Positions 4,459 through 34,352 of a stretch of DNA of 64,000 nt are shown here, piece by piece (position 1 is the stretch's first letter; each line of letters begins with the position of its first letter). The DNA is taken from the NCBI GenBank assembly GCA_902475545.1, contig CABRZP010000003.1, positions 72,422 through 136,421 on the forward strand. Reading direction: 5' to 3'. The translations under genes and the position numbers were made by a program. The DNA comes from an uncultured bacterium (GTDB taxonomy: Bacteria; Cyanobacteriota; Vampirovibrionia; Gastranaerophilales; Gastranaerophilaceae). The notes beneath the pieces were generated by a model. It made no database searches. It was not told the DNA's origin and saw only the letters and a program-made list of their open reading frames with translations.

Positions 4459-4487
4459 ATTTTTAGCTGACAAAACAAAAAGTTTGG

Positions 4488-4521: not shown

Positions 4522-4539
4522 GTACAAAAAGGAGATGTG

Positions 4540-5740: not shown

Positions 5741-6105
5741 TGAAAGGAAAATTTATGAAACAAGATAAAAAAATAGAAGAAATTCTTTTGAATGACGAAA
5801 GTTATGAAAATTTTGTTAATTCAAAACTTGAAAAAGATTTTGAAAATGAAATTTCTTCTGTTCCAAAACTTAAAAACGAATTTATAACAAATATTAAAAA
5901 TGTTCCTGTTGAAAAACTGTTTTCAAAAAATGCGGTATATATTGTTATGAACAAAAATAGCAAAACAAAATCATATATAAACGGTATTCAGGCAGAGGCT
6001 TTTCTTGCGTCAGATAATATTTCGAGAGAAAAATTGATGTCGCATCAAACTGATTCATTTGTGCATAATGAATGTTATATAAAATTTTATAAACTGAAAG
6101 TATAA
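5740..6105 (+). CDS. Phage hypothetical protein
   Basis: 121 aa. Its ATG overlaps the terS TAA (TAATG), suggesting translational coupling. Confidence 0.55.
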   Translation: MKGKFMKQDKKIEEILLNDESYENFVNSKLEKDFENEISSVPKLKNEFITNIKNVPVEKLFSKNAVYIVMNKNSKTKSYINGIQAEAFLASDNISREKLMSHQTDSFVHNECYIKFYKLKV

Positions 6106-6110
6106 AATAT

Positions 6111-6665: not shown

Positions 6666-6668
6666 ATT

Positions 6669-8345
6669 ATGGAAAAATATAAAAATAAATTATCATTAGA
6701 TATCAACTATCATGATGAACAAATTTTGATGGATGATATTATTCAAAAATATGATTATTACGAAGATAACCGCTCTTCTCAATTGTCAGATAACAGACTT
6801 ATTAAATATGCAATTTATAATTCTGATATTCCGAAAGTAAATGCATGGGATTGCAAAATTGAACTTCCTGAAATTTATGAACTAGCCCAAACATTAAAAT
6901 CCCATATTGTTCAGAATCTTTATTCTCATCCTGATGGAATGTTTGATGTTTCAGGAGTAGATAATAAAACGCAAAAATTTGCGAATAAGCAAAAAGCTAT
7001 GCTTGTTAATACCTTTGAGTTAATGGGCATAGAAGATGAAATGGAAAAAATTATTGATTCAGTTGTTGAAACCGGTGAAGTTACCCTTTTTGTCGGTTGG
7101 GAAACTAAGACCAAAAAGGTTAGAAGACCTTTAACTCTTGATGAGCAGCTGCGTGATAACACATCAGATTCTTTTGTTGTTGAAGATAGAATTGTCTATG
7201 ATAATGCAAAAGTTAAATTTATAAATTATGAAGATTTTGTATTTGATAAGAACGGTGTCGATAATTGGGATAATTGTTCAAAGATTTATCGTACATATCA
7301 AAGTTTTGATGATATCAAATCAAATAAAGCAAATAATAAATTAAATGTAGAAAAGTTGGAAATGTTAAAAGGAGTGATGGCAAAGAGAAAAGGTAAAGAT
7401 GATAATAAATTTGCAAGCCCTAAAATCGAAGTGCTTGAATACTGGGGAGATATTGAACTTCCAAGTGGTGAAGTATTGAAAAATAAATTGGTAGTTATTG
7501 CCGGCAGATGTGCAATTATTCGTTTTGAAGATAATCCGTTTATAATTAATCCGTTTATCCATGCCAATATCATAGAATGTCCAACAACAGGACGCGGTAT
7601 TTCCCCTTTAAGAGTTGCATTGATTTTAAATAATATTTCATCAACTATATTGAATAAACAACTGGATGCTCTTGCCCTTATGATGAACCCTCCATATTTA
7701 GCACCAAAAGGTTGTTTTAAAGGACAGCAGGATGTTAGTCCGGGAAAAATTATAGAATATGATTCATCATTGATGACAACTTCTCCAATTCCGCTTGCTT
7801 TTGATAAAGCTATGACAGGCTGGGATTTCTTAAATTATTTTAAAGCTACAATTGAGAGTGCTACAGGTATTTTCAAAAATATGGCTGGTAATGTTCAAGC
7901 TTATGACAGAACAGCAACAGAAATTAATTACTCTGTAAATGGGCAAGAAGCACGTTTGAATATGATTTTGGAATCTATTAATCGTAAAGTTATTGTTCCT
8001 ATGGTTGAAAAAACTGCAGAACTGATTTCAAATTTTAAACTTGGGAAAGAAAATATTTTAATAAATGATAGAGGAAAAACTCTAAGTATAGAAGTTGATG
8101 ATGATATAAGGAATTCTACATACGTATATCGTTATGGTGACAGAAAAGCCTCTTTTGAAAGAAAATCTAAGTTAAAAGAACTATTTGAAGTAGTTCAATC
8201 TTTTGCTCAGATTCAGACTGTTTCTGCTCGAATTGACTGGATTGAGTGTTTTAAATTTGCACTTGAACAGTATGGAGTTGAAAATGCTAATAATTTTTTG
8301 ACAGATGAAATGTCTGCTGAAAATAAGCAAGGAACATTGGCTTAA
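6669..8345 (+). CDS. Phage portal protein
   Basis: 558 aa, between terS and terL. Size and position fit a portal. The call is contextual, with only weak motif recall. Confidence 0.6.
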   Translation: MEKYKNKLSLDINYHDEQILMDDIIQKYDYYEDNRSSQLSDNRLIKYAIYNSDIPKVNAWDCKIELPEIYELAQTLKSHIVQNLYSHPDGMFDVSGVDNKTQKFANKQKAMLVNTFELMGIEDEMEKIIDSVVETGEVTLFVGWETKTKKVRRPLTLDEQLRDNTSDSFVVEDRIVYDNAKVKFINYEDFVFDKNGVDNWDNCSKIYRTYQSFDDIKSNKANNKLNVEKLEMLKGVMAKRKGKDDNKFASPKIEVLEYWGDIELPSGEVLKNKLVVIAGRCAIIRFEDNPFIINPFIHANIIECPTTGRGISPLRVALILNNISSTILNKQLDALALMMNPPYLAPKGCFKGQQDVSPGKIIEYDSSLMTTSPIPLAFDKAMTGWDFLNYFKATIESATGIFKNMAGNVQAYDRTATEINYSVNGQEARLNMILESINRKVIVPMVEKTAELISNFKLGKENILINDRGKTLSIEVDDDIRNSTYVYRYGDRKASFERKSKLKELFEVVQSFAQIQTVSARIDWIECFKFALEQYGVENANNFLTDEMSAENKQGTLA

Positions 8346-8377
8346 CATAGAAATTCTACATATAGGATGTTGTAATT

Positions 8378-9667
8378 ATGAAATATAAATTGCTTAATGC
8401 TCAACGTGAATTTCTTGAAATCCCTCATAATTATTCCCTTGATGTGGCTGTATATCAGGGCGGGTATGGATCCGGTAAAACTTTTGCCGGATCTTTACTC
8501 GGGATACTTCTTGCTTTAAAGTTTAATGGAATTCGGGGGCTTGTTGGGGCCCAAACTTACACTCTTGTCAGAGATACTACCCTTCAAAGTTATTTTGAAC
8601 ATCTTAATAGTATGAAACTTGTTGACGGCGTAGATTATAAGTGGATAAGTTCGGAACAAAAGCTTGTTTTCCGTAATGGTTCTGAAATTCTTTTCAGACA
8701 TTTTGACGAACCTAATAAGTTAAAATCATTAAATTTGGGATTTGTTGAAATCGAAGAAATGTCGGATATTCCTTATGATACATTCAAAATGCTTCTTGCA
8801 AGAATGAGACAAAAAGTTTCTCCGGAGTGGAAGAGATTTACATATAGGATTTTTGGTCATACTAATCCTGAAATCCAGCAAGGTTGGATTTATAAAACTT
8901 TTTTTACAAATCCGCCGCCGAATTATCGTCTAATATGTGCACCAACAACCCAAAATGTTTATTTGCCTGAGGGATTTTGTGAAGAACTTAAAAAGCTATA
9001 TGACAAAAGTTATTATGAAACATTTGTTCTCGGCAGGACCGGAAATTATAATGAAAATCTTGTTGTCAAAGATTTTACTGATAAAAATGTTAGAGATATT
9101 CAGTATCAACGGGATTTGGATGTTCACATAAGCTGCGATTTTAACGTCGATCCTATGGCATGGGTTCTGGCTCACAAAACCGAAGACAAAGTATTTTATT
9201 TTGATGAACTTGTTATTGAAAATACTACAACATCGAAAACATGTGATGAATTTTATCGCAGATATCCTAATCATAAGGGTAAAGTTATTATCAATGGAGA
9301 CGCTTCAGGTGATAATCGAAGTTGTATGAGTGAATATACAAATTATGTAATCATTAAAAAGAAACTCGAATCGTTTGGTTATAATGTGGAAATTAGAATT
9401 AAAGCGTTCAATCCTCCAATTAAAAACAGGATAGCGGCTTTCAATGCCAAAGTTAAAAATGCTAATGGCGAAATTTGTTTATATATTTCTCCAAAATGTG
9501 AAAAACTTTTGTATAACATATATAATTTACGATATCAGGAAGGGTCTTCAAGAATTGATATTCCTACATATACTCAGATAAAGCAGTCGAAAGAATTAAA
9601 ATTCTTATCACATCCTTTTGATGCTGCATCCTATCTTGTTGATTTTTATTGGCCAATTGTTTTGTAA
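8378..9667 (+). CDS. terL: Terminase large subunit
   Basis: Walker A YQGGYGSGKTFAG and Walker B-like GFVEIEE. C-terminal nuclease-like region (ISCDFNVDP...INGDASG). 429 aa. Confidence 0.85.
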   Translation: MKYKLLNAQREFLEIPHNYSLDVAVYQGGYGSGKTFAGSLLGILLALKFNGIRGLVGAQTYTLVRDTTLQSYFEHLNSMKLVDGVDYKWISSEQKLVFRNGSEILFRHFDEPNKLKSLNLGFVEIEEMSDIPYDTFKMLLARMRQKVSPEWKRFTYRIFGHTNPEIQQGWIYKTFFTNPPPNYRLICAPTTQNVYLPEGFCEELKKLYDKSYYETFVLGRTGNYNENLVVKDFTDKNVRDIQYQRDLDVHISCDFNVDPMAWVLAHKTEDKVFYFDELVIENTTTSKTCDEFYRRYPNHKGKVIINGDASGDNRSCMSEYTNYVIIKKKLESFGYNVEIRIKAFNPPIKNRIAAFNAKVKNANGEICLYISPKCEKLLYNIYNLRYQEGSSRIDIPTYTQIKQSKELKFLSHPFDAASYLVDFYWPIVL

Positions 9668-9699
9668 AAACCTGTTATTAAGAAAGGAATTATTTTAAT

Positions 9700-9930
9700 A
9701 TGGAAACTTTATTATATTATTCTCCGGTAATAATAGTTGTTTTGGTCTTTTTAATCCAGCAAAGGATTGTAGTTACACCGGAACAACTGGAAAGAAAGCA
9801 TCGCGAGATACTAACAGATATAGAAAAACGTTTTGTAACAATAAACAGTTATGAAGATTTAAAGTCTCAATTTACCGAAATTAAAGATAAAATAGATAAA
9901 ATTTATGATTGTTTAATAATTTCAAAATAA
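9700..9930 (+). CDS. Small membrane protein (holin or i-spanin-like candidate)
   Basis: 76 aa. N-terminal TM segment YYSPVIIVVLVFLI followed by a charged, coiled-coil-like tail. Confidence 0.45.
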   Translation: METLLYYSPVIIVVLVFLIQQRIVVTPEQLERKHREILTDIEKRFVTINSYEDLKSQFTEIKDKIDKIYDCLIISK

Positions 9931-9934
9931 CTTA

Positions 9935-12900
9935 TTATGCGAAGTAGATATGACCTTTTTTCTTTTGCCTATCATAGTCTCTGCCAAAAGGTAAGGTTAC
10001 GCTGTGTCCATCACCTTTATCATATATATAAGGATGTGCTGTTTCGTCACCTTCAATAGCGTTCTCAAGAGTAATCATACCACTATCAGGTTTCACTTGA
10101 GCAATTGCAGGATTAGGATTTGCAGAAGGTGCTGTTTTCATGCTCTGTATATGCTTTGCATAGTGAGCATCTGTTCCAGGAATTTCTTCAGCCAATGCGG
10201 GATAATTAGCTAAAATATCACTTTGATATTCAGCTGTAAGCAGAGCATACAGACCTTTAAGATTGCGAGGTTCTTCTCCGCCTTTTAACTGTAATTCAAT
10301 AATTTTTGCCAAAGCTTCAGAATTATTTTTGATTAAATTGATATCCTGAATTTGACCTTTCATATACAAGTCAATAATATCAGAAGAATCCATAAATCTA
10401 ATCAATTCGCTGTTTTGACTATACTTAAATAATGTTCTTATAATACCTTTATCACTTCTATGCTCATTAGCAAAAGCCATAATTGCTTCATGTGATTTTG
10501 TACTTGCAAGTTTTTCAACGAAGGAATCTTTTTTATTACCATCTAATGCCTTATAAATTGCATTTATACCATTTTTTTCGTATAAATCTTTGAAATATTC
10601 TTTAACGTCTTCTTTTAATTCTTGAGGAAGATTTTCATACTTATTTATATTAGGATCTGAATATACTTCAGTTTCTGATGTTAATTCGGCAATAATATCC
10701 TCAAATCTATCCTCAAGTTTTTGAGCTTGTTGTTCTTCATATTCTTGAATACTTTCAGCTTGAGTTTCCATGAATTCCTCAATTTTATCCATCAAAACTT
10801 GAGCTTCATCTTTTAATTTTTGAGTTTCTTCAGGTGAAATAGACTGAAGAGTTTTTGATGTTACTTCGGCTGAACCTGATGCTTCATCATTGATAGCAGA
10901 AGGATTATTTGAAATATGAGTTTTGCTTGCTGATACTGAAACAGTTGAAGAACTACTTGCAGAAGCATAAACTGTTCTATTATTAGATGCAGCAGTTTGA
11001 CCGGTTACAGAATTTTTAGCAGCTTGATTTGTTGTATATATAGCAGTCTGATTTACAGCAGAAGCCTGAGATTGCTTAGATGAAGCAGGTGAAGCTCCTG
11101 ATGGTTGAGAAGCATTATTACTACCTGTATTATTCGCAGCTGATGGTGTAGATGTTGTACCTGTACCATTTGCAGAATTTGAATTAGCAGCTACATTTGA
11201 ACCGGCATTTGAACCTGAATTTGAATTTGAGCTTTCAATAGGTTTGCCGTTAGAAGTATTAGTTTGAGATAATGTTGAAGATGAAATTTCACCGGTTTCA
11301 CGGGCTTGTCTTATAGCAGCCTGTTGTTCCGGCGGATAATTCTTCATAGCATTATCAACATAAGAGTCATACTGTTGTCTTGCACTCGGATCAGAAATAG
11401 ATTTAGATGCAGCAGCAAGTCCCTCAGTAACCGCAGGGTTGTCAACTGTAGATAAAGTTTTACCGTATCTTAACTGTTCTTCGGAACCAAGTCTTGCAGC
11501 ATCAGTAATTAATTCGTTTGTAAATTGAGATTTATAACTATCTGCAATATTAGAGTTATTAGCTAGTGATAAAGCAAATCTATTTGCCTTTGTCCTATCT
11601 TCTAAGTCGTTTAACCCTTGAGCTGATGCTGTCATTAAGTTTTTATGATGTTGAATGCCTTCTGTAAATTGATTCCATGCTTTATCGGATTTTGCACATG
11701 CAGGCATCATTCTGGACATTTTTTCAGCCATTTTCGGATCTTGTTTATTAACCCTGTTAGTAGCCCTAGCGGCTTGTGCACCGTTATCATGTACAATCAT
11801 TGCTGCAAAACCTGTACGGGTATAGGTTTCAGAGTTTAAAAATTCTTTAATATACTTGTCTCGAATTTTTGGATCTAAATCTTTTCTGCCATTTAATAAG
11901 GTTTCAATAAGCTCTACTTGTTCAGCATTACCCATAGCCCGAGCTGAACCAATCAAAGCAACAAATTGTTTTCTACCTTCTTTAGTCTTAAAATCTATGT
12001 TATTTATCATAGTTGTAATGTACTCTTCAGTGGACATTCCATACATTTCAGCTGCAACTTCATTAACAAGTTTTAAGTCTATATTGTCTTTTTTTAAATC
12101 TATTCCATTTTGTTCAAGTCTGGAATACATTTCTAACATGTTTTTTTCAACTGCAGATAAAGGCTGCTTATTTTGCAGGTACTTATACATATCATAACTA
12201 GTTGGATTTTCTTTATTAAGTGATATGCCAACTTCAATACTTATTTGCATTATTTCAATTGAAGTCTGGTATCTCTTTTTCATATCATCCGGAAGAGATT
12301 TTAATACTTCTCCAAAGGCTTCCAGTTTTCGGTCTGGGTCTTCAGACTGAAAAGCCTTAAGCACTTGCATTAATTTACCAGATTTTGACAAATTTGAAAC
12401 TATTTCAAGTCCATTCTTGAAAAGTTCCTCATCTCCCATATGCGTATTTTTAGCAATAGTCTCTACAGGTATTCCAATATTATTAAAAAATTCTTTTATT
12501 TTGGAATTTCTGTATTCATCTTTAGCTTTACCGGATAATTTTTCATATTCTGAATCTGCTCCCATAAGTATTGCATCCGCAAATTTATTTACTTTTTCAA
12601 CATTACTATCACCCGGAATATTTTTAATTTTTTCTAGTGTAGTATTGACAATATTTTCAACAGATGCATCAATAATTTTATTTATATTTTCTTTTTTTAG
12701 TTTTGTTAAATCTTCAATAGATTTCCCTGTTGCATGTGCATATTGTAAGATAGCTACAGCATTTAATGAACTAGTAAAATTATTTAATTTATTTTTTTCA
12801 TTATAATTAATTAGTTGTTTTAAAATTGCAACAGTATCTTTTTCATATCTTTCTTTATCTTTTTTTGATAATTCTGAATATTTTGAATCATTTGCATTCA

Positions 12901-23905: not shown

Positions 23906-24274
23906 TTAACTATTTAATTTTATTAATTCATTTCGAGTTTCTGCAATTTGTTTATTATAATATTCAAGCCAAGTTTCACCACTTTCTTCATCTTTTATTT
24001 CCATTTCGCATAATGCTCGAATACGTTTTGCATCAAGTTCATTAAGCTTCTCAATGATTTTTGAATTATGCTCAATTGCTTCCCGCTCCTTGACGATTTC
24101 AGCATACTTCGGATTTTCAACAATTTGTCCGCCTGAATAAACAAATTTATCCGGAGCTTCGCAGTAAGTTTGATACAATTCATTAGAAACTAAAATACTC
24201 ATAGTATCTTCATCAATGCACTTACATTCTCCTGCTCCATTTAGGATTCCATTATTAATAAAAATATATTTCAT
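23906..24274 (-). CDS. Tail-fibre-assembly / chaperone-like protein
   Basis: 122 aa, immediately downstream of the tail-fibre-like gene. The charged helical C-terminus (LDAKRIRALCE...WLEYYNKQIAETRNEL) fits the Tfa-like pattern. Contextual call. Confidence 0.4.
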   Translation of the reverse strand: MKYIFINNGILNGAGECKCIDEDTMSILVSNELYQTYCEAPDKFVYSGGQIVENPKYAEIVKEREAIEHNSKIIEKLNELDAKRIRALCEMEIKDEESGETWLEYYNKQIAETRNELIKLNS

Positions 24275-24298
24275 GATTTTCCCTTTCTTAAAATTTAA

Positions 24299-24898
24299 TT
24301 ATCTAACTTTTCTATAACCACAAAGCTTGAACGAACAAGAATTAGGATAACTGTTTGCATTAGTTTCGCTGCCTGTTCTTATTGTTAAACTCCTATCCGG
24401 TCCAATAGGAATTGTGCAATTACAAGAATCTATATCATTGTAATTATTTATTCTTGTAACAGCCCTACCTAAAAATACACCATTACATAATTGAGTAGTC
24501 GCTATAATGGCAAGACAATTATTTGATTCACTTCCTGTTCTTATTATTGCACCTATTATAATTTCATAAGTATTATCATCCTCTGGTAATAGTGAGGATA
24601 AATCAAAAGTTTTATTGTAATTTGCTGTAACCGTAACATTTTGAGCTATATAACTGTTTTTAGATTTCCAAACACCATCAAGTTCTGTTTTGTCAGCCTT
24701 ATTATCTAATGTTGATTGACCTGCTTCGTCTAAATTTGCAAGATTCGCATCCGCTTTAGTTGCAACACTTGAATTTAGAGTTTCAATATCAGAATTTATT
24801 TTGTCAAGCTCATCTATAACTGCAATAAAATTTGCATTTACTTCGTTTGCCTTTGCTTTTGTTCCAGGAACGAAAGAGTACGGAATGTTAAATGTCAT
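24299..24898 (-). CDS. Phage tail-fibre-like protein
   Basis: The N-terminus PYSFVPGTKAKANEVNANFIAVIDELDKIN is a motif I recall from many phage tail-fibre and collar proteins. It is followed by a coiled-coil heptad region and a Cys-rich C-terminal domain. Confidence 0.5.
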   Translation of the reverse strand: MTFNIPYSFVPGTKAKANEVNANFIAVIDELDKINSDIETLNSSVATKADANLANLDEAGQSTLDNKADKTELDGVWKSKNSYIAQNVTVTANYNKTFDLSSLLPEDDNTYEIIIGAIIRTGSESNNCLAIIATTQLCNGVFLGRAVTRINNYNDIDSCNCTIPIGPDRSLTIRTGSETNANSYPNSCSFKLCGYRKVR

Positions 24899-25062: not shown

Positions 25063-25443
25063 TTACGCAGTTGGAGCTGCCGGTTTTTTCCTACTAAACA
25101 ATTTTGTAAACGGACTAAGAATCGCTTCACCTGTTTTTGCAAGATAGTGACCAACTTTTTCCATTGTTTTTGCATTTTTCAGAGCTTCTGCATCTAATGT
25201 TTTGATTGCTTTTGGAAATACTTTAGGAAGTGCGGCTAATACACCTGCAACTACCACTAAACCAGCAACAAATTTTAAAAGTTTTTTTCCACCTGATTTT
25301 TTAGGTTGATCAGCAGGTGCAGTTGTTGCTGCTGTAGTTTGTTGAGCGTCACCACCGGAAAATCTACCCGGTCTTGATAATGGACTTGCACCAGTTGTTT
25401 CACCACAAAAACGTACACTTGAGATTGAATTGACCATTGACAT
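25063..25443 (-). CDS. Small membrane protein with an N-terminal ISSVRF motif
   Basis: 126 aa. MSMVNSISSVRFCG, an A/T/P/Q-rich linker, then TM LLKFVAGLVVVAGVLAAL. Visibly higher G+C than its neighbours. Confidence 0.6.
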   Translation of the reverse strand: MSMVNSISSVRFCGETTGASPLSRPGRFSGGDAQQTTAATTAPADQPKKSGGKKLLKFVAGLVVVAGVLAALPKVFPKAIKTLDAEALKNAKTMEKVGHYLAKTGEAILSPFTKLFSRKKPAAPTA

Positions 25444-25607
25444 GAGAAAACCTCCTTACACACTTTTTACAAAAATTTTAAAACATATAATAATTTAATT
25501 TTGACCCAATAAATTTATTTTGTGAATTATTGTTACAAAAATTTACATTTATTTTGGAATATTTTAATTCCATGTGTCATCTATATACTTGTGGAGGAGA
25601 GATTATA

Positions 25608-28600
25608 ATGCCAGAAAAACAACAATCACTTATATATATAGAACAACAAAACAAAACTGAAGCTGAATTTATGTCCAGAAGCTTTGTTGATAAAGCTACT
25701 AAGAATAGAGCGTACATAAATGCCCTAGGTGCAGAATTAGTTATAAAATATCTTGCACTTGAAGGAGTTGACGCTGCAAAGACTTTCAATCTTCATTCAA
25801 TTTCAAAGATTTTAGAAAAAGTTGATATCTCTGATATCAGACTACCAAATGTTCATATTGATGTGAGAGTTGTTTTTGATGAAAGTCAAATATTTATTCC
25901 AAAAAGCCATTTTGAATATGGTTTAGTACCTGATGTTTATTTTATTTTAAAACTTGCACAAGATTTTAAATATGTTGAATTTTTAGGATTTATTAAACCT
26001 GAGTTAATAAACAAAAGAAATGCAAATTCTGACTATTATTTTGTCGAAATGAGCGATTTAACTTCTCCTGATTCCGCAAAAGAATTTATTCAAAATTTTG
26101 AAGGCAACACCTCTGTTGGAATAACTCAAGATGAAATGCTCAAAGGTCGTGAATTATCTGTCTTGATGGCAGATCATAACATTTCCGATTCTGAAATGAA
26201 AGAATTATTCAGATTACTTTCAGCAAGCAGTGAATTAAGAGACAGTGTTCTAGAGTTTGACAATTTTGAAACTCTTTCAAATTCTGTTGGATCTATTTTG
26301 TTTGAACAAATGACCACTGCCGAATCTGTAGATGTTAGTTCCATTGAAGATTTCTTAGATAATCCGGAAGATGACTCTCAAAATTCTGAAGAAAATGAAC
26401 CTCAGCAAGATACAACACAAGATATAGAAACATCTAACGAAACAATTGAAAATATTACTACAGAAGATACATTAGATGTTGATTTTGATGATATTTTTTC
26501 AGATGAACCGATTTCAAGTGAAGAACCTGAAATGTTAGAAATGACAGAGCAGAGTACTGATTTACCGGCAGCCAACGAAAATGACGATGACAAATTAGGA
26601 CAAATTGTCGGAGACGTTGTTAAAAAATCATTAGGACTTGCAGCAGGAACCGCAGCAGCAGGAGCAATTGCAGGAGCCGCAGCTGAAGCCGCAGAAATAT
26701 CAGCTGCAGGAGCCATTTCGGAAGAAGCAATGAAACTGGCAGGTGTTGCCGGAGATGTTGTTTCTGACTTAATTAAACAAAATATTGATAATCAAGAAGA
26801 ACATTTAAGCAAACTTGATTTTGAAAATTTAGCTGTACGTTCAGAAAACATAGAGGATGAACTTGCAGGGTTTGAATTTGCAAATGATCCTATAAATACT
26901 ACAGATGAATACGCTGCACCTCAAGATTTATCATCTCTTGAACAAGTTCCAACATCTGATTTTACCGAAACAAATGAAATTCAACATGATGTTGTAGATT
27001 TGTCAGAAATGGCCGAAGTTGAAAATGAAAACTTTAAAGAAAATATTGAAGATTTATCTGATTTACATAATATGTCAACAATGGATTCAACAGATCCTAT
27101 AAATATAGACATTGAAACTAATGATGATAGCAATGAACATTTATCAGAATTAGATTTTCAAAATTTAGAAACAATAGATAATGAACAAAACCAAAATACA
27201 GAATCTAAAGATAATTCTGAAGAAGAAAATCTTCTTGATTTTAATTCAACAGATGATATTTTCGGAGAAGAAGATTTAAACATACTTGATACAGATTTAA
27301 ACATGGATATTGTACAAGATGATTTTGTTGATTTAAACTCAGAAGATCCAATTATTGATAACAACTCAAATGTTTCTGAAGAACCTATTACTGAAGAAGA
27401 AGAAAGCGTTGTTGAAAATACAATTGATAACGAATCTGAATCAATCTCTGTTTCTGACGATATGGAATTATCAGAAGAGATAGATATGTTGGAAGACAAT
27501 TTAATAATCGACGATTTTAACGAGGATGCATCTTTAATTGAAGCTCCATTAGAAGAAGAAATCTCGGCACCTGAAAATGAGGAAATTCAAGAAAACACTG
27601 TTTCTGTTGAAAATAGTATTATTGAAGAAAACAATGAAACAAACGACTTACTTATCGATGAAGCTTTAGAACCTGAAGCCTCAGAAGATGAACTTTTTGC
27701 AAATATAGATATGGAAGAAGATTTAGTTCTTGATGATGTTATTAGTGAAGATACTGAAATGGATGACATAGAAGCTAACAACCAAGAACAAGAAAATTCA
27801 ATACCAGAAAACAATACAATAATAGAAGATGAAGTAGTTTCCCTTGATAATATTGAACCTGTGGACAATTATGAAACTACAAACATTGATATTAATGATT
27901 CTAATATTGAAGAAAATAATCTTACAAATTTAGAAGAAATAGCTGAAGTAAATAATTCAGATGAAGATTTTTCAGCATCAGAAGACCTTTCTGCACAAGA
28001 ATGGTTAGAAGATTCAGTTGATAACATTGAAGCAGCGGCTTTAGGCACAATTTCAGATTCTGATAATGTTGAAAATTCTGAAATTGAAACAGGCGACAAT
28101 ATTGAAATTGACAATCAACCTGAAGATATTATTACAGAGCCTGAAGTTATTCAACCGTACGAATTTGCAGTTGCAGAAAACTCTATTGTTATAAGCGATC
28201 TTACATTTAAGGTTGGAGAAATTCCAATCGATATCAACAATCCGAATGTTCAAACCTTTGATGGTCCTGAACAATTAGGTGATTTATATAATGAAAATGT
28301 TCCTGGCGGTTCATTACTCCAAAATCCGGGAACTTTAGGCTCTGCTGCTGCATCCAGAAACAAGAAAAGTCCTATCGGAGGAATTCTTGGCGGTATTGTA
28401 GTTCTGATTATTCTCGGAGTTGTTGGTTTTTATGTGGCAAAAATGCTTAAACCTGCTGTAGAAGAAGTTCCCGAACCAATTACAGATGGAAACACTTCTG
28501 TAACACCTGAAGTAGGATCAAATGATCCGAATGCATTGAATGTAAAACCTGAAAATGTTGTAAATATGGAAAATAATACTCCTGCAGTTCAACCAAATGT

Positions 28601-29051
28601 CACACCTGCTGAACCCGCACAAAAGGTTCAACAGACAACACCTCTAGCAAACGCAGCTAAAACACCTGCTACAGTTCAAAAGAAACCAAAACCAATCCCT
28701 TCAACATCTTTCTTAAATGTTAGAAAATTGAGTTGGGAAGTACCTGATTATATTTCATATAATCAACAATTTAAACAATACTTCCAATCTGCAGGTAAAA
28801 GTTTGAAATTATCTTTGACTACAGACTTACTTTCTGCATCTGAATACGTATACTCAGATCAAGTTAGAGTAAGCATTTTGTATGACAAAGACGGTACTTT
28901 CAAAGATGCTAAGATATTATTATCAAGCGGTTCTGCTCAGGTAGATAAAATTGTGTTACAAACTGTTAACCAAACCTTAAAGGTGCTAAAAGCTCCTAAT
29001 AGCGTGGGTAACGACGAAAGTACAACGGTCATACTTAAAATTTATTTTTAA
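25608..29051 (+). CDS. Giant bitopic protein: DUF1822-like N-terminal domain, ~600-aa D/E/N-rich acidic region, one TM helix, Pro-rich linker, TonB-C-like domain
   Basis: GGAGGAG RBS before the ATG at 25608 (the ORF track opens at 25530). TM IGGILGGIVVLIILGVVGFYVA (about 28372-28440). The C-terminal VSILYDKDGTFKDAKILLSSGSAQVDKIVLQTVNQ matches the TonB_C pattern. Confidence 0.75.
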   Translation: MPEKQQSLIYIEQQNKTEAEFMSRSFVDKATKNRAYINALGAELVIKYLALEGVDAAKTFNLHSISKILEKVDISDIRLPNVHIDVRVVFDESQIFIPKSHFEYGLVPDVYFILKLAQDFKYVEFLGFIKPELINKRNANSDYYFVEMSDLTSPDSAKEFIQNFEGNTSVGITQDEMLKGRELSVLMADHNISDSEMKELFRLLSASSELRDSVLEFDNFETLSNSVGSILFEQMTTAESVDVSSIEDFLDNPEDDSQNSEENEPQQDTTQDIETSNETIENITTEDTLDVDFDDIFSDEPISSEEPEMLEMTEQSTDLPAANENDDDKLGQIVGDVVKKSLGLAAGTAAAGAIAGAAAEAAEISAAGAISEEAMKLAGVAGDVVSDLIKQNIDNQEEHLSKLDFENLAVRSENIEDELAGFEFANDPINTTDEYAAPQDLSSLEQVPTSDFTETNEIQHDVVDLSEMAEVENENFKENIEDLSDLHNMSTMDSTDPINIDIETNDDSNEHLSELDFQNLETIDNEQNQNTESKDNSEEENLLDFNSTDDIFGEEDLNILDTDLNMDIVQDDFVDLNSEDPIIDNNSNVSEEPITEEEESVVENTIDNESESISVSDDMELSEEIDMLEDNLIIDDFNEDASLIEAPLEEEISAPENEEIQENTVSVENSIIEENNETNDLLIDEALEPEASEDELFANIDMEEDLVLDDVISEDTEMDDIEANNQEQENSIPENNTIIEDEVVSLDNIEPVDNYETTNIDINDSNIEENNLTNLEEIAEVNNSDEDFSASEDLSAQEWLEDSVDNIEAAALGTISDSDNVENSEIETGDNIEIDNQPEDIITEPEVIQPYEFAVAENSIVISDLTFKVGEIPIDINNPNVQTFDGPEQLGDLYNENVPGGSLLQNPGTLGSAAASRNKKSPIGGILGGIVVLIILGVVGFYVAKMLKPAVEEVPEPITDGNTSVTPEVGSNDPNALNVKPENVVNMENNTPAVQPNVTPAEPAQKVQQTTPLANAAKTPATVQKKPKPIPSTSFLNVRKLSWEVPDYISYNQQFKQYFQSAGKSLKLSLTTDLLSASEYVYSDQVRVSILYDKDGTFKDAKILLSSGSAQVDKIVLQTVNQTLKVLKAPNSVGNDESTTVILKIYF

Positions 29052-29089: not shown

Positions 29090-29653
29090 GTGGAATTAAC
29101 ACAAGACAAGATAGAGCTGATAAGTAAAATCATAAAAAACGACCGGAAGTATTCAAACAATGAAGATTTGTATGATGATTTCTTTAATGAAACATGCAAA
29201 CGTTCTGTTGGAATACTTGAGGCTGTTGATTCTGAGGCTACTCTTGAAATTTACTTAAAACGTGTTGCAACTACAGCAATTATTAATGTATTGAAAGATT
29301 CCGGAAGATTAAGACGTTCCAGAACCGGTTACATGTCAACAAAAGAAGTATCTTATGATAATACTAAAAATGATGTTGATTATTCAGATGTTGTTATTAA
29401 TTATTCAAATGTGACACTTCCTGAAACCCCTGAAGATATTGTTATCCAAAGAGATTTTCTACAATTTGTTGCTGACACGGTTAAGAAAATTAATGATCAA
29501 GAACCTGATAAAGATTATTTACATATTTATATTTTACGTTATGATAAGGGCATGACTCAGAAAGAAATATCTGATGAAATTGGTATCTCCCAGTCTGAAG
29601 TTTCCAAAAGACTTTTCAGATTGATGGAAAAAGTTAAAAATGTCATTGAGTAA
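29090..29653 (+). CDS. Divergent sigma-70/ECF-like protein (region 4 HTH clear, region 2 degenerate)
   Basis: YILRYDKGMTQKEISDEIGISQSEVSKRLFRLMEKVKN matches sigma region 4. YLKRVATTAIINVLKD resembles region 2.3/2.4. GTG start with a GGAG RBS. Confidence 0.65.
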   Translation: MELTQDKIELISKIIKNDRKYSNNEDLYDDFFNETCKRSVGILEAVDSEATLEIYLKRVATTAIINVLKDSGRLRRSRTGYMSTKEVSYDNTKNDVDYSDVVINYSNVTLPETPEDIVIQRDFLQFVADTVKKINDQEPDKDYLHIYILRYDKGMTQKEISDEIGISQSEVSKRLFRLMEKVKNVIE

Positions 29654-29665: not shown

Positions 29666-32623
29666 ATGAAATGTCCCGTATGTGAAAAAAATATTCCGGA
29701 AACAAGTTTGAGATGTCCGTATTGTAAAACTCGAACAGGTTTATTGTGTTCTCATTGTAATACAGTTAACCCTCTCGGCACTCTTTTATGCAAAAATTGC
29801 GGACATGAACTGCTTAAAATTTGCCAACATTGCGGTAGTGTGAACTTCCCCAATGCCGTAAAATGCAGAAAATGCGATTCCCTTTTAAATCCAAAAACAG
29901 AAGAAAAAATATCAGGTATAAATCCATTAGAATATAACCCTGATTTATACAGCCAAAAGCAAGCGTTTGATATTTTATCTGACGGATTAAATTCAAAAAC
30001 GCAAAAAATATTTTCTATTACAGGAGACAAAGGAATTGGTAAAACTTTTCTACTAAAACAAGTCATAAAAAGTTTTAATAAAGATAAATTCCGCTGGGGT
30101 ATCGGAGAATGCACCCCGCTTACGCAATTAACTCCCGGTGGTGTAATTCAGGCAATGCTGTTGGATTTATTCTGCCTGCCCAATTTCTGTATTAAAAATG
30201 AGGAATTTGAAACTAATGCAATTAAATTTTTCACTAATGAATTTAAATTTTTAAAACAAGATGAAATTTCTGACTTTTTAAACTTTTTATATAATTTTAA
30301 AGATGGAAACTATGAAGATATCATTATTAATAAAAAACGAACTTTTAAAATTTTAAATAAGATATTTACAGCGTTTTCAGACACCGGAAATTTTGTTTTT
30401 GTAATTGATAATTTTGATTTTATAGATGGTTTTTCAATTGAATTTCTAACAAATTTTATGCAGCATGACGAAGTTTGGAAAAACCTCAAGTTTATTGCTA
30501 TATATAACAGACATAAGCCAATAACTAATTTTTTCGGATTTGAAGATAAAGATATAAATGCGTATGTTGATATTAATCTTGCTCCGTTAACAGTTAAAGA
30601 ACTTGAAAATAACATGAAGTTAACGGGAGATTCAGGTACCTATGTAACAGAAAGAGAAAAAGAAGTTATTTTTGCTAAAAGCCATGGGAACCCTGCATTT
30701 GTAGAACAGGCTATAAGCTATTCTTTTGATTGTCAAATTTCAGATAAAGCATTTTTGATGCCTAATACTTTTTTTGAATTGATTAAAAATCGTTTAGACA
30801 CTTTGAAAAAAAATAATAATCAGGCTTACAAACTTCTTTGCGGAGCATCTGTTATTGGTAATAAATTAAATTTAGCATTATTAAAAGAAATTTTTGGATA
30901 TAAAGGACAAGAGTTTAACGATATAATGTCCTATCTTGTGAAATCAAATTTTGTTAGACCTTATAATGAAATATACTATGAATTCAATAATATTTTATTA
31001 TGGGAAACAATATTAAAAAGTCTAACCCGAAATTCGGCATTTGAAGATATAAATATAAAAATAGGAAAAGCATTAAGCGTATTTACACTAAATACAAATC
31101 CGACACTGGCTATGATTGCACACAATTTAAAAGAAACTCGAATGGCTTTTGATATTTGGACAAAGACAACACGTCTTGCCTCTTACGTCGGAGATATAAA
31201 TTTATATGTTATTTCGCAAAAACAGTGTCTTGCATTACTAAATGAATTCAATGAGAATGAAACACTGAACATTCGCTATAATATCAGTGAACGACTCGGG
31301 AAATTACTTGCTGAATACGATGCAGAAGAAGCTTTGGAATTTTTACCTGATGCTATAGCCAATGCAAAAGCTGACAATAACGAAGTAAAGGAAATTGAAC
31401 TGTTAGGGTATTTATCTCTCTGCTGCAAAAAAACAGGTAACTATTTGGGCAATGTTGAATGCGTTGATAATGTTTTAAAAAAGATGAAACCATCTCAAGA
31501 GATTGAATCAGCTCTGGTTAAAACTTCAAAATTAGAATCACTTTTAAATATCGGAAACTGCGGAGAAGTTATTAATCTTATTGATAATGACATCATGCCT
31601 GTTTTAAGTAATTATCTTGCTAAACCTAAATTAAACAAGACAATACCTCTATTATTTTTGTATGATACATGGATCAGAATTCATTTAACACTGGCTCATG
31701 CTTTAGCCCTGCAAGGTAATAACCGCTCATTTGAAATATTAAACAAATTATTTAATATTATTGAAAAACATAAAGTTAATGATTACCAGCTTCATTGTAA
31801 AGCTAAACTTGTCTTGGCATTAGCAAATACTATGCAGGGGAATTTTGAAACCTCGAACAATCTTTTAGAAGATATTGAACGAAATTATAAAGACAAAATC
31901 ATGGATGGAGAAACTATTTCCCGAATGAATTTAATTTCTATAATCAATAGATTTATGACTAAACAATATGACCAGCTTCAGGAAATATTGTTTGATGCTG
32001 TAACATTTGCAAATAATACGGGGGATAATTTTACAAAAAATATTTTGAAAGTATTGCTTGGTAAAATGTTTAAAGATGAACAAAAAGCAAAGCATGCAAT
32101 AGAAATATATAATGAACAGGTCACATACTTTGCAAAAGAGAAAATGGCATTAGGAGCGTTGCTGTCATGGTTATTAATTGCTGAAGCAGTAATGATAACT
32201 GAAACACCGAAAAATACTATTGAAATTGCAAATAATGCTCTTGAAATTGCACAAAATCCGAGAATTAATAACACATTTTTTATTGTGCATTTAAAAATGC
32301 TTTTAGCTCAAGCCTATATGGAATTATCAGACTATGAAACCGCAAAAATAAATCTTGAATCGGCAGTTATACTTGCAAAAAAATATGCAATGAACGATAC
32401 CCTTTCAAGACTTTATATGCTATTTGGAAAATATTACAGAGACTTAGGGACTGTACAATCTAACAATCAAATTGATTACTTAAAAGGAGCATTAAAAATG
32501 TTTGAAAATGCGATGTCTCTTGTTCTAAAAAATACACATAATAAATATATTCATGACCAAATAGATAAAGAGCAGAGACTTTTGCTTTCATATTGTGATG
32601 TTAATGGTTTTAAAATAGTTTAA
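29666..32623 (+). CDS. STAND-type P-loop NTPase with N-terminal multiple zinc ribbons and a C-terminal TPR-like array
   Basis: Four CxxC pairs in the first 75 aa. Walker A ITGDKGIGKTFLLK (about 30022-30045). Walker B-like FVFVIDNFDFID. Long helical-repeat C-terminus. Confidence 0.75.
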   Translation: MKCPVCEKNIPETSLRCPYCKTRTGLLCSHCNTVNPLGTLLCKNCGHELLKICQHCGSVNFPNAVKCRKCDSLLNPKTEEKISGINPLEYNPDLYSQKQAFDILSDGLNSKTQKIFSITGDKGIGKTFLLKQVIKSFNKDKFRWGIGECTPLTQLTPGGVIQAMLLDLFCLPNFCIKNEEFETNAIKFFTNEFKFLKQDEISDFLNFLYNFKDGNYEDIIINKKRTFKILNKIFTAFSDTGNFVFVIDNFDFIDGFSIEFLTNFMQHDEVWKNLKFIAIYNRHKPITNFFGFEDKDINAYVDINLAPLTVKELENNMKLTGDSGTYVTEREKEVIFAKSHGNPAFVEQAISYSFDCQISDKAFLMPNTFFELIKNRLDTLKKNNNQAYKLLCGASVIGNKLNLALLKEIFGYKGQEFNDIMSYLVKSNFVRPYNEIYYEFNNILLWETILKSLTRNSAFEDINIKIGKALSVFTLNTNPTLAMIAHNLKETRMAFDIWTKTTRLASYVGDINLYVISQKQCLALLNEFNENETLNIRYNISERLGKLLAEYDAEEALEFLPDAIANAKADNNEVKEIELLGYLSLCCKKTGNYLGNVECVDNVLKKMKPSQEIESALVKTSKLESLLNIGNCGEVINLIDNDIMPVLSNYLAKPKLNKTIPLLFLYDTWIRIHLTLAHALALQGNNRSFEILNKLFNIIEKHKVNDYQLHCKAKLVLALANTMQGNFETSNNLLEDIERNYKDKIMDGETISRMNLISIINRFMTKQYDQLQEILFDAVTFANNTGDNFTKNILKVLLGKMFKDEQKAKHAIEIYNEQVTYFAKEKMALGALLSWLLIAEAVMITETPKNTIEIANNALEIAQNPRINNTFFIVHLKMLLAQAYMELSDYETAKINLESAVILAKKYAMNDTLSRLYMLFGKYYRDLGTVQSNNQIDYLKGALKMFENAMSLVLKNTHNKYIHDQIDKEQRLLLSYCDVNGFKIV

Positions 32624-32634: not shown

Positions 32635-32657
32635 GGTGTTTGAATTTACCAAACACC
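32635..32657. terminator. Bidirectional terminator hairpin
   Basis: GGTGTTTG-AATTTAC-CAAACACC with an A-run upstream, between convergent genes. Confidence 0.55.
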
Positions 32658-32684: not shown

Positions 32685-34352
32685 TTAGATTTCAAACAAA
32701 CTGTGAAGTCTGCTTCTAATATCATCTTCATCCAGTTCGCCTGTTAATTTATTCAAATCAATTGCCATCTGATAATAATTAGCGGCATCATTTGTAAAGC
32801 CCATTTGCTGACTTGCTCTTCCTGCATTAAAATATGCAAGAGTATAATTCGGATTTAGTGCAATAGCTTCTTCGAAATATTCAAGAGCTTCTTCTGCATC
32901 TGCCAAACCATCCAGATATAATATTCCAAGATTATTTTGGGAATATTCATTCTCAGGATTCAATTCTATAGCTTTATGGTAAGCAACTAAAGCTTCTTCC
33001 AAATAGTCTTTTTCCCACAGTGCAATTCCGACTTTTGAATAAGCTCTGGCTTCATCCGGATTCAAGGTAATTGCGTCGCAATATGCCCGTATTGCTTTAT
33101 CTAAATCGTAATCTGCCATATATATATCACCAAGAGCAATATGCAAATCGTAATTTTTCGGGTCTAATATAATACCTGCTTGGTATGTCGAAACCGCAGC
33201 TTCCATGTTGCCTTTATTTTCGGCATAAATTGAACCTAAAGCCTGACATACAATTGATGTCCATTCTGCATCAGGATTTACTGAAATTGCTTTCTGATAA
33301 TGTTCAATTGCATCATCATACAATTCAGCTTTTGCATAAGCATAACCGAGAGAATTATTAAAGAACGGATTTTCCGGATCTTTTTCTACTGCAAGCTTAA
33401 ATGCACTTAACGAATTCAATTTATCTTCTTTTGATAGATATAAATGTCCTAATTCATAATAAATTTGAGCAGTATCAATATCAAATTCTAATAATTTTTC
33501 ATAACAATCAATTGCTTCTTCCGTATTTTCAGGAAAATATGTTTGCAAAATTGTAGCCAATTTTACAAGCACTTCACGATTAATAGGATTTGCCTCTAAT
33601 ACTTTTCTATAGCATTCTGCAGTTTTTTCTAAATCTTTATTTTTTAATGCCAAATCACCAATTTTATTGTAATAATATTCACTATGTGTAGTTTTGACTA
33701 TAGCATCATTGTATAATTTTTCTGCAGCATCATACATCTTACAGTTTTCATAGAATCTTCCAACTGTATTATATGAAAAGATTGAAACATCATTTGACAT
33801 GTTTTTATAGAACATTTTGATGGCAGCTCTATCCCATGCCAACATAACACTTCCTGTTATGAAATAATACAAAAATCCTGCATAGTCTTTAAATGAACTG
33901 CTTTGCGTATTGATTTTCTGTAATATTGACTGCGACAAAATCATTCTTGGTCTGCCTGAAGTCAAAGGACTCATCTTTATTGCTGACTTAAATTCTTTTT
34001 CAGCAGACGAATAATCTTGAGCTAATTGCATGAAATAACCTGTATAAAGGTGAGCATCCTTATTGTGAGGAGACAAGGAAATTGCAGTCTTACATTGCTC
34101 TATTGCAGTATTAACACTAATCTGCCCCTGTTCCCACATCAATGTAGCTAACCTGTAATAAGTTTCAGGTATTGTAGGGTCATACTTAACCGTATCTACA
34201 TAGTGTTCAATTGCCTCTTGTAAATCGTTATTTCTCTGACCAATTAAATATTTCTCATGAGCAAGTCTTGCTTTTTCAAGAGAATCTATAGCCTTTTCCT
34301 TATTTTCTATATTGTTTGTGCCAATCATTGGCATTAAAACTTGTTCTGACAT
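32685..34352 (-). CDS. TPR repeat protein
   Basis: 555 aa with many 34-residue repeats of the A..Y..AI.L.P pattern (for example AIEHYQKAISVNPDAEW, AYHKAIELNPENEY, YFEEAIALNPNYTLAYFN). Confidence 0.85.
   Translation of the reverse strand: MSEQVLMPMIGTNNIENKEKAIDSLEKARLAHEKYLIGQRNNDLQEAIEHYVDTVKYDPTIPETYYRLATLMWEQGQISVNTAIEQCKTAISLSPHNKDAHLYTGYFMQLAQDYSSAEKEFKSAIKMSPLTSGRPRMILSQSILQKINTQSSSFKDYAGFLYYFITGSVMLAWDRAAIKMFYKNMSNDVSIFSYNTVGRFYENCKMYDAAEKLYNDAIVKTTHSEYYYNKIGDLALKNKDLEKTAECYRKVLEANPINREVLVKLATILQTYFPENTEEAIDCYEKLLEFDIDTAQIYYELGHLYLSKEDKLNSLSAFKLAVEKDPENPFFNNSLGYAYAKAELYDDAIEHYQKAISVNPDAEWTSIVCQALGSIYAENKGNMEAAVSTYQAGIILDPKNYDLHIALGDIYMADYDLDKAIRAYCDAITLNPDEARAYSKVGIALWEKDYLEEALVAYHKAIELNPENEYSQNNLGILYLDGLADAEEALEYFEEAIALNPNYTLAYFNAGRASQQMGFTNDAANYYQMAIDLNKLTGELDEDDIRSRLHSLFEI

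Follow-up and report, generated by a model that had tools for sequence, protein, structure and literature searches.

The third gene of a conserved operon from an uncultured member of the Gastranaerophilaceae encodes a previously uncharacterized protein of 985 aa, and this protein is a real STAND NTPase. Its motifs, Pfam profile matches and fold matches agree on zinc ribbons followed by an AAA_16-type core and a TPR-like C-terminus. The core gene that encodes it lies directly behind those for a small sigma factor and a giant membrane protein; it is therefore probably a regulatory gene of this sigma module, not a mobile anti-phage gene. More specifically, the chances are somewhat better than even that the protein acts as a cytoplasmic AAA_16/MalT-like nucleotide switch, which would control the three-gene sigma module of Gastranaerophilales. 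The features on which the analysis is based are given below in the coordinates of the window, that is, the whole stretch of 64,000 nucleotides that was analyzed.

25530-25587, plus strand: conserved promoter-like block, composed of TTGTTACAAAAATTTACA (25530-25547), GGAATA (25556-25561), a 16-nt spacer and CATCTA (25578-25583)
25608-29051, plus strand: first gene, membrane protein of 1147 aa; DUF1822-like head followed by polyacidic spacer, single TM helix and TonB_C-like tail
29090-29653, plus strand: second gene, ECF-type sigma-70 family factor of 187 aa, starting at GTG behind the ribosome-binding site GGAG
29666-32623, plus strand: third gene, STAND protein of 985 aa, with an ATG start
29666-29893, plus strand: zinc-ribbon head (residues 1-76), three tandem CxxC-N10-CxxC ribbons
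29894-29953, plus strand: linker (residues 77-96), modeled with low confidence (pLDDT below 50 at residues 77-88)
29954-30580, plus strand: P-loop nucleotide-binding domain (residues 97-305), supported by AAA_16, motif conservation and strand order in the model
30593-31024, plus strand: helical and winged-helix domains (residues 310-453), assigned from the AF2 model, fold matches and the invariant R376 and G398
31040-32605, plus strand: TPR-like alpha-solenoid (residues 459-980), about 25 paired helices in the model, pLDDT mostly above 90
32635-32657, no strand assigned: GC-rich hairpin with a 9-bp stem, separating the STAND gene from the convergent TPR gene, found in a terminator scan

Domain architecture of the STAND protein

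The initial annotation described a zinc-ribbon, P-loop and TPR protein of the MalT or Avs type, and this description is borne out by the motifs, the Pfam matches and the fold matches. In the Pfam search that it recommended, DZR reaches 39 bits against a cut-off of 27.3, and AAA_16 covers residues 108-277 with 32.1 bits, slightly below its cut-off of 32.6. On the same locus in a six-frame search of the genome, AAA_16 scores 35.2 bits and exceeds this cut-off, and a precomputed PF13191 match is present in most homologues. The TPR_12 and TPR_MalT matches are weak; TPR_MalT (PF17874) gives 13.7 bits against a cut-off of 45 and rises to 42.7 bits in one distant homologue. An AfsR match from NCBIfam, also of 13.7 bits, falls in the TPR part. 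KAP_NTPase exceeds its cut-off of 20 with 23.3 bits; this identity was rejected as a cross-match at the P-loop level, since the NTPase domain has no TM insertion and its fold is that of a STAND protein. A search of PDB sequences with the family profile returned only zinc-ribbon-level and P-loop-level matches. The genome holds a single full AAA_16 protein, which is the one described here.

The conservation of the nucleotide-binding motifs was judged in two alignments, one of 26 diverse and one of 46 closer homologues. The proposed Walker A motif, GDKGIGKT (G120-DKGIGK-T127, nt 30023-30046), is confirmed: G125 and K126 do not vary among the closer homologues and reach at least 90% conservation among the diverse ones. 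The proposed Walker B-like stretch holds as well: V244-FVIDN249 is followed by F-D-F-I-D254-G-F-S257 (residues 244-257, nt 30395-30436), in which D254 and S257 are invariant and correspond to the AAA_16 pattern DDlhwaDeaS. The second acidic position of Walker B is occupied by an asparagine, N249, which is invariant in the 46 close homologues, and distant members carry DD or ED. As judged from this substitution, ATP hydrolysis may be slow or absent.

The N-terminal head contains six CxxC pairs (C3/6, C17/20, C28/31, C42/45, C53/56 and C67/70) and consequently three zinc ribbons, so that the ribbons claimed earlier stand while their count of four pairs does not. All 12 cysteines are invariant in both sets of homologues. 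Residues 1-70 are modeled with a pLDDT above 90, and the single ribbons superpose on eL40 and on fingers of the NZF/RanBP2 type with deviations of 0.4-0.9 A. Zinc ribbons of such a type can also bind nucleic acid. The head is basic, with a net charge of +6 and a range of +4 to +13 among the 46 homologues. It faces an operon partner whose net charge is -203. No enzymatic fold was found in residues 1-76, and a Foldseek search with the head alone gave no match at E <= 0.001.

The head is connected to the core by a short linker. In distant homologues, the linker site carries an insert of 150-340 aa, which is either a degenerate class III cyclase domain or of low complexity. The globular inserts had no Pfam matches; their cyclase fold becomes visible in a PDB profile search, in which their profile matches the nucleotide cyclase 5oyh over the full domain (E 0.0016). 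The metal-binding Asp positions of the retained cyclase domains are replaced, and these domains are therefore probably inactive, as far as their sequences indicate. A degenerate cyclase-homology domain also occurs in a 1159-aa paralogue in the same genome. Multidomain proteins that join a class III cyclase, AAA_16 and TPR are known, for example of the Mycobacterium tuberculosis Rv0386 type. The distant homologues resemble them: their cyclase-homology domain follows the zinc ribbons and precedes the AAA_16 core, which points to an ancestral plan of zinc ribbons, cyclase-homology domain, AAA_16 and TPR. The window protein, by contrast, has no cyclase domain, only about 20 aa of linker being left, and has no LuxR HTH.

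The AlphaFold (AF2) model of the whole protein has a pLDDT of 88.5 and shows NBD, HD and WHD followed by a solenoid. The helical repeats of the initial annotation are thus present, over about 520 aa and not the approximately 600 aa that were estimated. In Foldseek, the best match is the archaeal STAND-TPR protein 6mfv (E 1.7e-11) and the second-best is Avs3 (8dgc). The NOD of MalT (8bob) matches with a target-normalized TM-score of 0.60, and Apaf-1 (3sfz, 1z6t) is also found. Both comparisons proposed earlier, with Avs and with MalT, are therefore fold matches. For the solenoid, the matches include TPR subunits of the APC/C, Ctr9 and LGN. The solenoid, presumably a domain for sensing or for binding a partner, is conserved better than any other part of the protein: segments 501-650 and 751-900 have the highest identity in both alignments. 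This conservation fits a constant endogenous partner.

The initial annotation also stated that the N-terminus consists of zinc ribbons only, and profile and fold searches support this. They found no nuclease, protease or HTH effector anywhere in the protein. Neither LuxR/GerE nor any other HTH was matched, and the model ends in the solenoid; the Pfam search gave no match to a SARP module (Trans_reg_C, BTAD).

Operon, promoter and conservation

The STAND gene begins 12 nt after the stop codon of the sigma gene, which in turn lies 38 nt behind the membrane-protein gene. The sigma factor scores 67 bits on TIGR02937 against a cut-off of 42.9, and its Sigma70_r4 and r4_2 matches exceed their cut-offs. 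The membrane protein has a polyacidic spacer of about 700 aa, which belongs to a protein of the strongly negative overall charge given above, and its TonB_C and TonB_2 matches lie just under the cut-offs. Its head is homologous to the PF08852-positive DUF1822 head of the orthologue in a genome of another family (G038), and orthologues within the family match PF08852 (DUF1822) directly.

The promoter-like block lies about 25 nt upstream of the ATG at 25608, and its sequence is nearly identical across 14 loci that represent different genera. It may be read, from its sequence, as a -35/-10 promoter of the ECF type, and the operon is probably autoregulated from it. A PWM of 35 nt was built from the 14 orthologous promoters and scanned over the 1.93-Mb genome. 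Only one site was found, the operon's own promoter, with 42.4 bits; the next-best score of 16.7 is at the level of shuffled sequence. This genome-wide search for a regulon consequently returned no further promoter, and a scan with the exact pattern gave one other match, inside an ORF on the opposite strand. At the other end of the operon, the hairpin is flanked by an A-run and a T-run, which results in a T-tract on the minus strand. It is likely to be the end of the operon transcript, judging by its sequence.

The gene travels with its neighbors, as the initial annotation had suggested checking. In 79 of 79 public loci that could be assessed, the sigma gene immediately precedes the STAND gene in the same orientation, and the membrane-protein gene precedes the sigma gene in all 28 loci with enough flank. 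Intergenic gaps measure 3-17 nt. The order of DUF1822-head/TonB_C membrane protein, sigma and STAND is found at 12 of 12 loci of the genus. Another 14 of 14 loci, which cover 13 other genera of the family, retain it at STAND identities down to 23%, as does the G038 genome. In the G006 genome, the triad occurs a second time as a diverged copy. In several other families of the order (f5, f6, f8 and f10), the STAND homologue is located far from the sigma gene, and the pair of TonB_C protein and sigma has a different third gene or none. Consequently, the link to sigma is not obligatory in cis.

The STAND gene is core, single-copy and vertically inherited. It is present in all 24 genomes of the genus, all 73 of the family and 15 of 16 from other families of the order Gastranaerophilales. 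In the single genome of the order without it, the DUF1822 gene lies at a contig end. A search of 3 genomes from another order of the class yielded none of the three components. The neighbors are housekeeping genes, namely ribBA, ribE, groEL, cysE, tyrS and hisS, and no relatives of the protein were found on plasmids or phages.

The convergent gene of 555 aa (32685-34352), which the initial annotation pointed out as a TPR neighbor, exists and is strongly TPR. Its status as a conserved partner was rejected: it adjoins the STAND gene only in a strain with 93% identity, and none of 14 loci from other genera has it in the flanks. A gene that is a neighbor in the closest strain only is not part of the system.

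Related systems and the probable role

In cyanobacteria, neighborhoods of sigma, DUF1822 and EACC2-caspase/CHAT genes have been described (Kaur, Burroughs, Iyer, Aravind, eLife 2021, PMC8195603). The pairing of sigma and DUF1822 was confirmed here in 10 of 10 cyanobacterial loci, two of which (L050 and L051) have CHAT neighbors. Sigma and DUF1822 thus form a module shared across the phylum, whose third gene, for a sensor or a protease, varies (PMC8195603). The operon resembles the cyanobacterial loci in placing a sigma-70/ECF gene beside a DUF1822 protein and a large third gene of the sensor type. It differs in that the third gene encodes a zinc-ribbon STAND ATPase instead of a caspase/CHAT protein, and no CHAT match was obtained in the window operon. 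Further differences are the extension of the DUF1822 protein, in which the domain is fused here with polyacidic spacer, TM helix and TonB_C, as well as the gene order (DUF1822 protein before sigma here, sigma before DUF1822 there) and the copy number (single-copy and core here, multi-copy there).

The cyanobacterial sigma-DUF1822-caspase systems have been proposed by Aravind's group to serve immunity or apoptosis (PMC8195603), and the operon could accordingly be regarded as their Melainabacterial counterpart. The STAND protein would then be a sensor of an Avs-like or other conflict system, in which the TPR region recognizes an invader protein, the core oligomerizes and the sigma factor drives a transcriptional or abortive response. 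The protein shares with Avs3 the order of N-terminal module, STAND ATPase and TPR-like sensor, and the fold match to Avs3 is significant. Moreover, the sigma-DUF1822 pair does accompany EACC2-caspase (CHAT) proteins in cyanobacteria, G006 has its second triad, and the control of defense loci by ECF sigma factors has a precedent in DdvS/DdvA (PMC11506125). However, the protein lacks the nuclease, protease, Sir2 or TIR effector of Avs proteins and any other enzymatic effector domain, and it is about half their size. PADLOC, which the initial annotation proposed running, assigned neither Avs nor another defense family; its sole match was ShosA, with 13 bits and an E-value of 0.01. The gene is found in every sampled genome of the family, outside defense islands and off plasmids and phages, the genome has no expanded STAND repertoire, and the supposed sensor is the most conserved region of the protein instead of a diversifying one. 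A defense function is therefore unlikely. Where the initial annotation left the choice between a regulator and a defense-type sensor open, the constant adjacency to sigma, the core status of the gene and the PADLOC result favor the regulator.

If the protein is a regulator, it might act on transcription by itself. STAND proteins of the MalT clade, such as Escherichia coli MalT and Pyrococcus horikoshii PH0952 (the 6mfv structure), have the same core of NBD, helical and winged-helix domains followed by a TPR-like solenoid. They also have the AAA_16 Walker B signature D-x-h-x-x-h-D..S and the R...G motif of the winged helix. As an autonomous MalT-like activator, the protein would bind DNA through its basic zinc ribbons and assist the sigma-bound polymerase instead of controlling the availability of sigma. 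A candidate site is offered by TTCAA/TTACA/TTACA direct repeats with a spacing of about 10 bp just upstream of the operon -35; this block (25530-25547), directly upstream of GGAATA, is conserved in at least 12 loci. The MalT-like NOD fold, the basic head and the TPR_MalT scores among relatives would agree with such an activity. In contrast to the MalT clade, the window protein has no LuxR-type HTH or other output domain, with three zinc ribbons at its N-terminus, and its Walker B is DN and not DD. It has no other known DNA-binding domain either, and its ribbons resemble eL40, NZF and RanBP2 fingers, which are binders of RNA or proteins. The repeat block could equally be a UP element or serve the divergent gene, and the genome has no second copy of it, which would leave a single target. 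Direct activation is thus, like a defense role, unlikely, and the likely output domain is supplied in trans by the sigma factor.

A non-transcriptional role, in which an ATP-driven scaffold or chaperone assembles or remodels the envelope-spanning TonB_C-tailed protein and sigma is merely co-expressed, is very improbable. In its favor, TPR-STAND proteins can provide platforms for assembly, the operon is conserved, and the partner is a giant polyacidic protein anchored in the membrane. Against it, such a role has no known precedent, sigma remains with the TonB_C protein in other families where the STAND homologue is not linked to it, and a sigma gene placed between the other two points to an output at the level of transcription.

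The favored explanation remains a nucleotide switch that acts on the sigma module. The small ECF-type sigma factor and the single-pass membrane protein, with its predicted cytoplasmic head and periplasmic domain, resemble pairs such as RseA-sigmaE and FecR-FecI, as does the ECF-like bipartite promoter upstream of the operon. In pairs of this type, sigma is released by regulated proteolysis or by TonB-dependent signaling. Unlike the operon, the known anti-sigma/ECF pairs have no STAND ATPase, and the DUF1822 head is here the putative anti-sigma element. The direction in which control runs, what the zinc ribbons and the TPR domain bind, and autoregulation are inferred here. In the proposed mechanism, the TPR solenoid would bind a conserved endogenous ligand or partner, and this binding would allow the NBD-HD-WHD core to bind ATP and to oligomerize. 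Oligomerization would cluster the basic triple-zinc-ribbon heads. These could then engage either sigma itself or the part that holds it, DUF1822 head or acidic tether, and this engagement would set the amount of free sigma.

A more far-reaching form of this proposal is put forward tentatively, its chances being below even. In this form, a tether that spans the envelope and has a DUF1822 head would hold the sigma factor, and the STAND ATPase would serve as gatekeeper of this sigma in the cytoplasm, with the clustered basic ribbons competing for the polyacidic tether or for sigma. Sigma would then be activated through a nucleotide switch, a route that differs from regulated proteolysis, partner switching and TonB-dependent signaling, in a system homologous to the cyanobacterial sigma-DUF1822-caspase modules.

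Meaning for Gastranaerophilales

The Gastranaerophilales inhabit the guts of humans and animals. They are related to cyanobacteria but are non-photosynthetic and uncultured, and their regulation is almost unstudied. The operon, which occurs in every sampled genome of the family, is one of the few lineage-defining regulatory cassettes of this order. It also illustrates that a STAND and TPR architecture without an effector need not imply anti-phage defense. If the STAND protein controls sigma, it would represent a new type of input into sigma signaling, namely an ATP-dependent oligomeric switch with zinc ribbons as its sole output. The operon would then also provide a tractable three-protein system for studying the role of the widespread cyanobacterial DUF1822-sigma pair.

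Sequence and predicted structure of the STAND protein

The STAND gene and the domains of its product, as delimited in the AlphaFold2 model
29666-32623, + strand: STAND open reading frame, 985 aa, ATG start, 12 nt past the stop codon of the 187-aa sigma gene
Residues 1-76: zinc ribbons
Residues 77-96: low-confidence linker
Residues 97-305: P-loop domain
Residues 310-358: helical domain
Residues 369-453: winged-helix domain
Residues 459-980: about 25 paired helices

The N-terminus of the protein matches the Pfam family DZR (39 bits, cut-off 27.3). It contains six CxxC pairs (C3/6, C17/20, C28/31, C42/45, C53/56, C67/70) and not four, as the initial annotation had counted, and thus three zinc ribbons. 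All 12 ribbon cysteines are invariant in alignments of both 26 diverse and 46 closer relatives. The Walker A (G120-DKGIGK-T127) and Walker B-like motifs reported earlier are present. The latter, VFVID248-N249, continues into FDFID254-GFS257, and the whole reads as an extended AAA_16 signature; D254 and S257 are invariant in both alignments, as are R376 and G398 of the winged-helix region. AAA_16 scores 32.1 bits on residues 108-277 (cut-off 32.6) and 35.2 bits, above the cut-off, in a six-frame genome search. KAP_NTPase reaches 23.3 bits (cut-off 20), and the TPR_12 and TPR_MalT matches are weak. The second acidic Walker B position is Asn in the window's clade, compared with DD or ED in distant family members, which suggests that ATP binding is likely retained and that hydrolysis may be slow. 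The best conserved region in the alignments is the TPR solenoid (residues 501-650 and 751-900), above the ATPase.

The AlphaFold2 model, built from a 46-sequence alignment, has a mean pLDDT of 88.5 and a pTM of 0.74. Foldseek searches of the PDB matched it to the STAND-TPR protein 6mfv (E 1.7e-11), Avs3 8dgc (E 1.3e-8), the MalT NOD 8bob (target-normalised TM-score 0.60), Apaf-1 (3sfz, 1z6t) and numerous TPR scaffolds. Residues 1-95 modelled apart form three small ribbons with pLDDT >90 over residues 1-70, each superposing at 0.4-0.9 A on eL40 or NZF/RanBP2-type fingers. When this head was used for a structure search, nothing matched at E <= 0.001 and enzymatic folds were lacking, in agreement with the earlier observation of an N-terminus with no recognisable nuclease, protease or DNA-binding effector. 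Together, the fold matches and the head model confirm the proposed STAND architecture with a zinc-ribbon-only N-terminus, which is predicted to be an interaction module rather than an effector enzyme.

Operon organization and upstream region

The sigma-70 family factor encoded upstream of the STAND gene scores 67 bits with TIGR02937 (cut-off 42.9); the matches in region 4 likewise exceed their cut-offs. It is preceded by a gene for a 1147-aa membrane protein, whose correct start codon is the ATG at 25608 behind a GGAGGAG ribosome-binding site. This protein has a head homologous to that of Pfam DUF1822, a TonB_C-like C-terminal part and a net charge of -203. The initial annotation had asked whether the STAND gene travels with the sigma/TonB-C pair in other genomes. 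The order membrane protein-sigma-STAND is kept in 12/12 genus loci, in 14/14 further loci from 13 other genera of the family (STAND identity down to 23%) and in one genome from another family, and gaps between the genes are 3-17 nt. The sigma gene lies immediately upstream of the STAND gene, on the same strand, in 79 of 80 public loci; the 80th starts inside the gene. Four other families differ: there the STAND homologue is found away from this site, among housekeeping genes, and sigma either remains with the membrane protein or stands alone. Consequently, the sigma-STAND link is strong but not universal in cis. In the three sampled genomes of another order of the class, searches turned up none of the three components.

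Several neighbouring or related loci were also recorded. In one genus genome, the whole triad is present twice; the second, diverged copy (locus L022, G006:C6:15000-33000, at 2455-10401) has a 1450-aa membrane protein, 55% sigma and 49% STAND identity and the conserved promoter block. In two other families (L025, 6465-8276, - strand; L026, 8239-9972, + strand), the TonB_C-protein/sigma pair is followed not by a STAND protein but by a 577-603-aa protein with a hydrophobic N-terminal segment and no Pfam match; in genome G028, the C-terminal end of this protein is similar to residues 1-74 of sigma (31% identity, E 1e-11). The convergent gene just downstream of the STAND gene (32685-34352, - strand) does encode a canonical 555-aa multi-TPR protein (TPR_11 154 bits, MamA-like 130 bits). 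It was rejected as a module member, as it adjoins the STAND gene only in a 93%-identical strain.

Upstream of the operon, a stretch of about 60 bp is nearly letter-identical in 14 loci.

Elements of the conserved upstream block
25530-25547: TTGTTACAAAAATTTACA
25556-25561: GGAATA, followed by a 16-nt spacer
25578-25583: CATCTA, after the spacer

The geometry of GGAATA, spacer and CATCTA resembles that of ECF-type promoters, and the block is presumably a promoter. In a PWM scan of the 1.93-Mb genome, it occurs once (42.4 bits; the next match has 16.7, which is shuffle level). This single copy fits autoregulation of the operon, and no second copy pointing to a regulon scored above shuffle level. 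A divergent 126-aa gene (25063-25443, - strand) shares the intergenic region 25444-25530 with the operon. The conserved strings ATTTTGAC and AAAACGACTGACA of this region recur across genera and may be the promoter of the 126-aa gene or an operator. Just upstream of the operon, isolated among housekeeping genes (23906-24898, - strand), lies a 199-aa ORF whose N-terminus resembles a phage tail fibre (FVPGTKAKANEVNANF), followed by a 122-aa ORF, neither with a Pfam match.

Distribution and proposed function

In the genus, the STAND gene is single-copy and full-length in 24/24 genomes (60-93% identity). Other families of the order carry it in 15/16 genomes (25-28% identity), and in the only order genome lacking it, the DUF1822 gene sits at a contig end. 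In a phylum-wide draw, it was found in 73/73 genomes of the family and in 0/3 of another order of the same class, and photosynthetic cyanobacteria gave only generic AAA_16-level matches. Among 1.84 billion representative proteins, there were only 612 matches at E <= 0.001 and 114 at <= 1e-30. Homologues are named Candidatus Gastranaerophilales, Gastranaerophilaceae, Melainabacteria or 'Cyanobacteria bacterium'. Their sources are the guts of humans, mice, ruminants, rabbits and chickens. The gene, otherwise specific to Melainabacteria, also appears, at 56-70% identity, in public MAG records under the labels Methanomethylophilaceae archaeon, Bacteroidaceae or Muribaculaceae (loci L065, L082, L083, L097, L119), whose contigs or bins are probably mislabelled or mis-binned. 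The protein is the only one with a full AAA_16 domain in a search of its genome. The operon is flanked by housekeeping genes (ribBA, ribE, groEL, cysE and tyrS upstream; a Bax-inhibitor gene and hisS downstream).

The initial annotation had left a regulator feeding the sigma factor and a defence-type sensor side by side; of the two, the regulator is preferred. An Avs-like conflict sensor with transcriptional output, whose fold the model shares, is unlikely: searches of plasmids and phages found no relatives, PADLOC returned no family matching the protein, and none of its distribution, setting or conservation fits a mobile, diversifying anti-phage sensor. A MalT-like activator, whose ribbons would bind upstream direct repeats, has the MalT NOD match in its favour and the lack of a known DNA-binding domain against it; it is regarded as quite improbable. 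A scaffold or chaperone serving the envelope protein is very doubtful.

Rated slightly likelier true than false is a cytoplasmic nucleotide switch that sets sigma availability, all of its functional steps being putative. The TPR domain would sense a conserved endogenous signal. Oligomerisation would then cluster the basic ribbon heads (charge +4 to +13 in homologues) onto sigma, the DUF1822 head or the acidic tether, and thereby set sigma availability.

Ancestral architecture and cyanobacterial counterparts

Distant STAND relatives are longer (1070-1340 aa), with an insert between ribbons and ATPase that is also found in triad-linked orthologues of two deep genera. In one group of distant relatives, the insert forms a globular domain (about 160 aa). 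A profile of this domain aligns with class III nucleotide cyclase domains along their full length (5oyh, E 0.0016; also 6sir, 6aoa, 3r5g), and its metal-binding Asp positions are substituted. This insert indicates an ancestral plan of zinc ribbons, (pseudo)cyclase, AAA_16 and TPR, from which the cyclase domain was lost in the window's clade.

The genome with the window's operon also encodes a 1159-aa paralogue (G000 contig C2, 116268-119750; locus L024:8269-11748). Its triple zinc-ribbon head is of the same kind (39% identity over 72 aa), its insert is cyclase-like and degenerate, and AANMYQPYT stands in place of Walker A. Apart from the STAND protein itself, no other protein of the genome has this ribbon head, and in 73/73 family genomes the paralogue accompanies the short form. 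The two might resemble a sensor/helper pair, with the paralogue as a degenerate partner of the active STAND protein.

A literature search found no paper describing this zinc-ribbon STAND/sigma/DUF1822 architecture. Kaur et al. (eLife 2021, PMC8195603) describe cyanobacterial sigma + DUF1822 neighbourhoods with EACC2-caspase/CHAT proteins. In the high-scoring cyanobacterial loci, a sigma-70 region-4 gene precedes the DUF1822 gene in 10/10 cases and CHAT proteins adjoin it in 2/10. Given this pairing, the window operon represents, in Melainabacteria, a sigma-DUF1822 module that occurs across the phylum. It differs from the cyanobacterial loci in that its DUF1822 domain forms one protein with an acidic spacer, a TM helix and a TonB_C domain, and in that a zinc-ribbon STAND ATPase occupies the third position.
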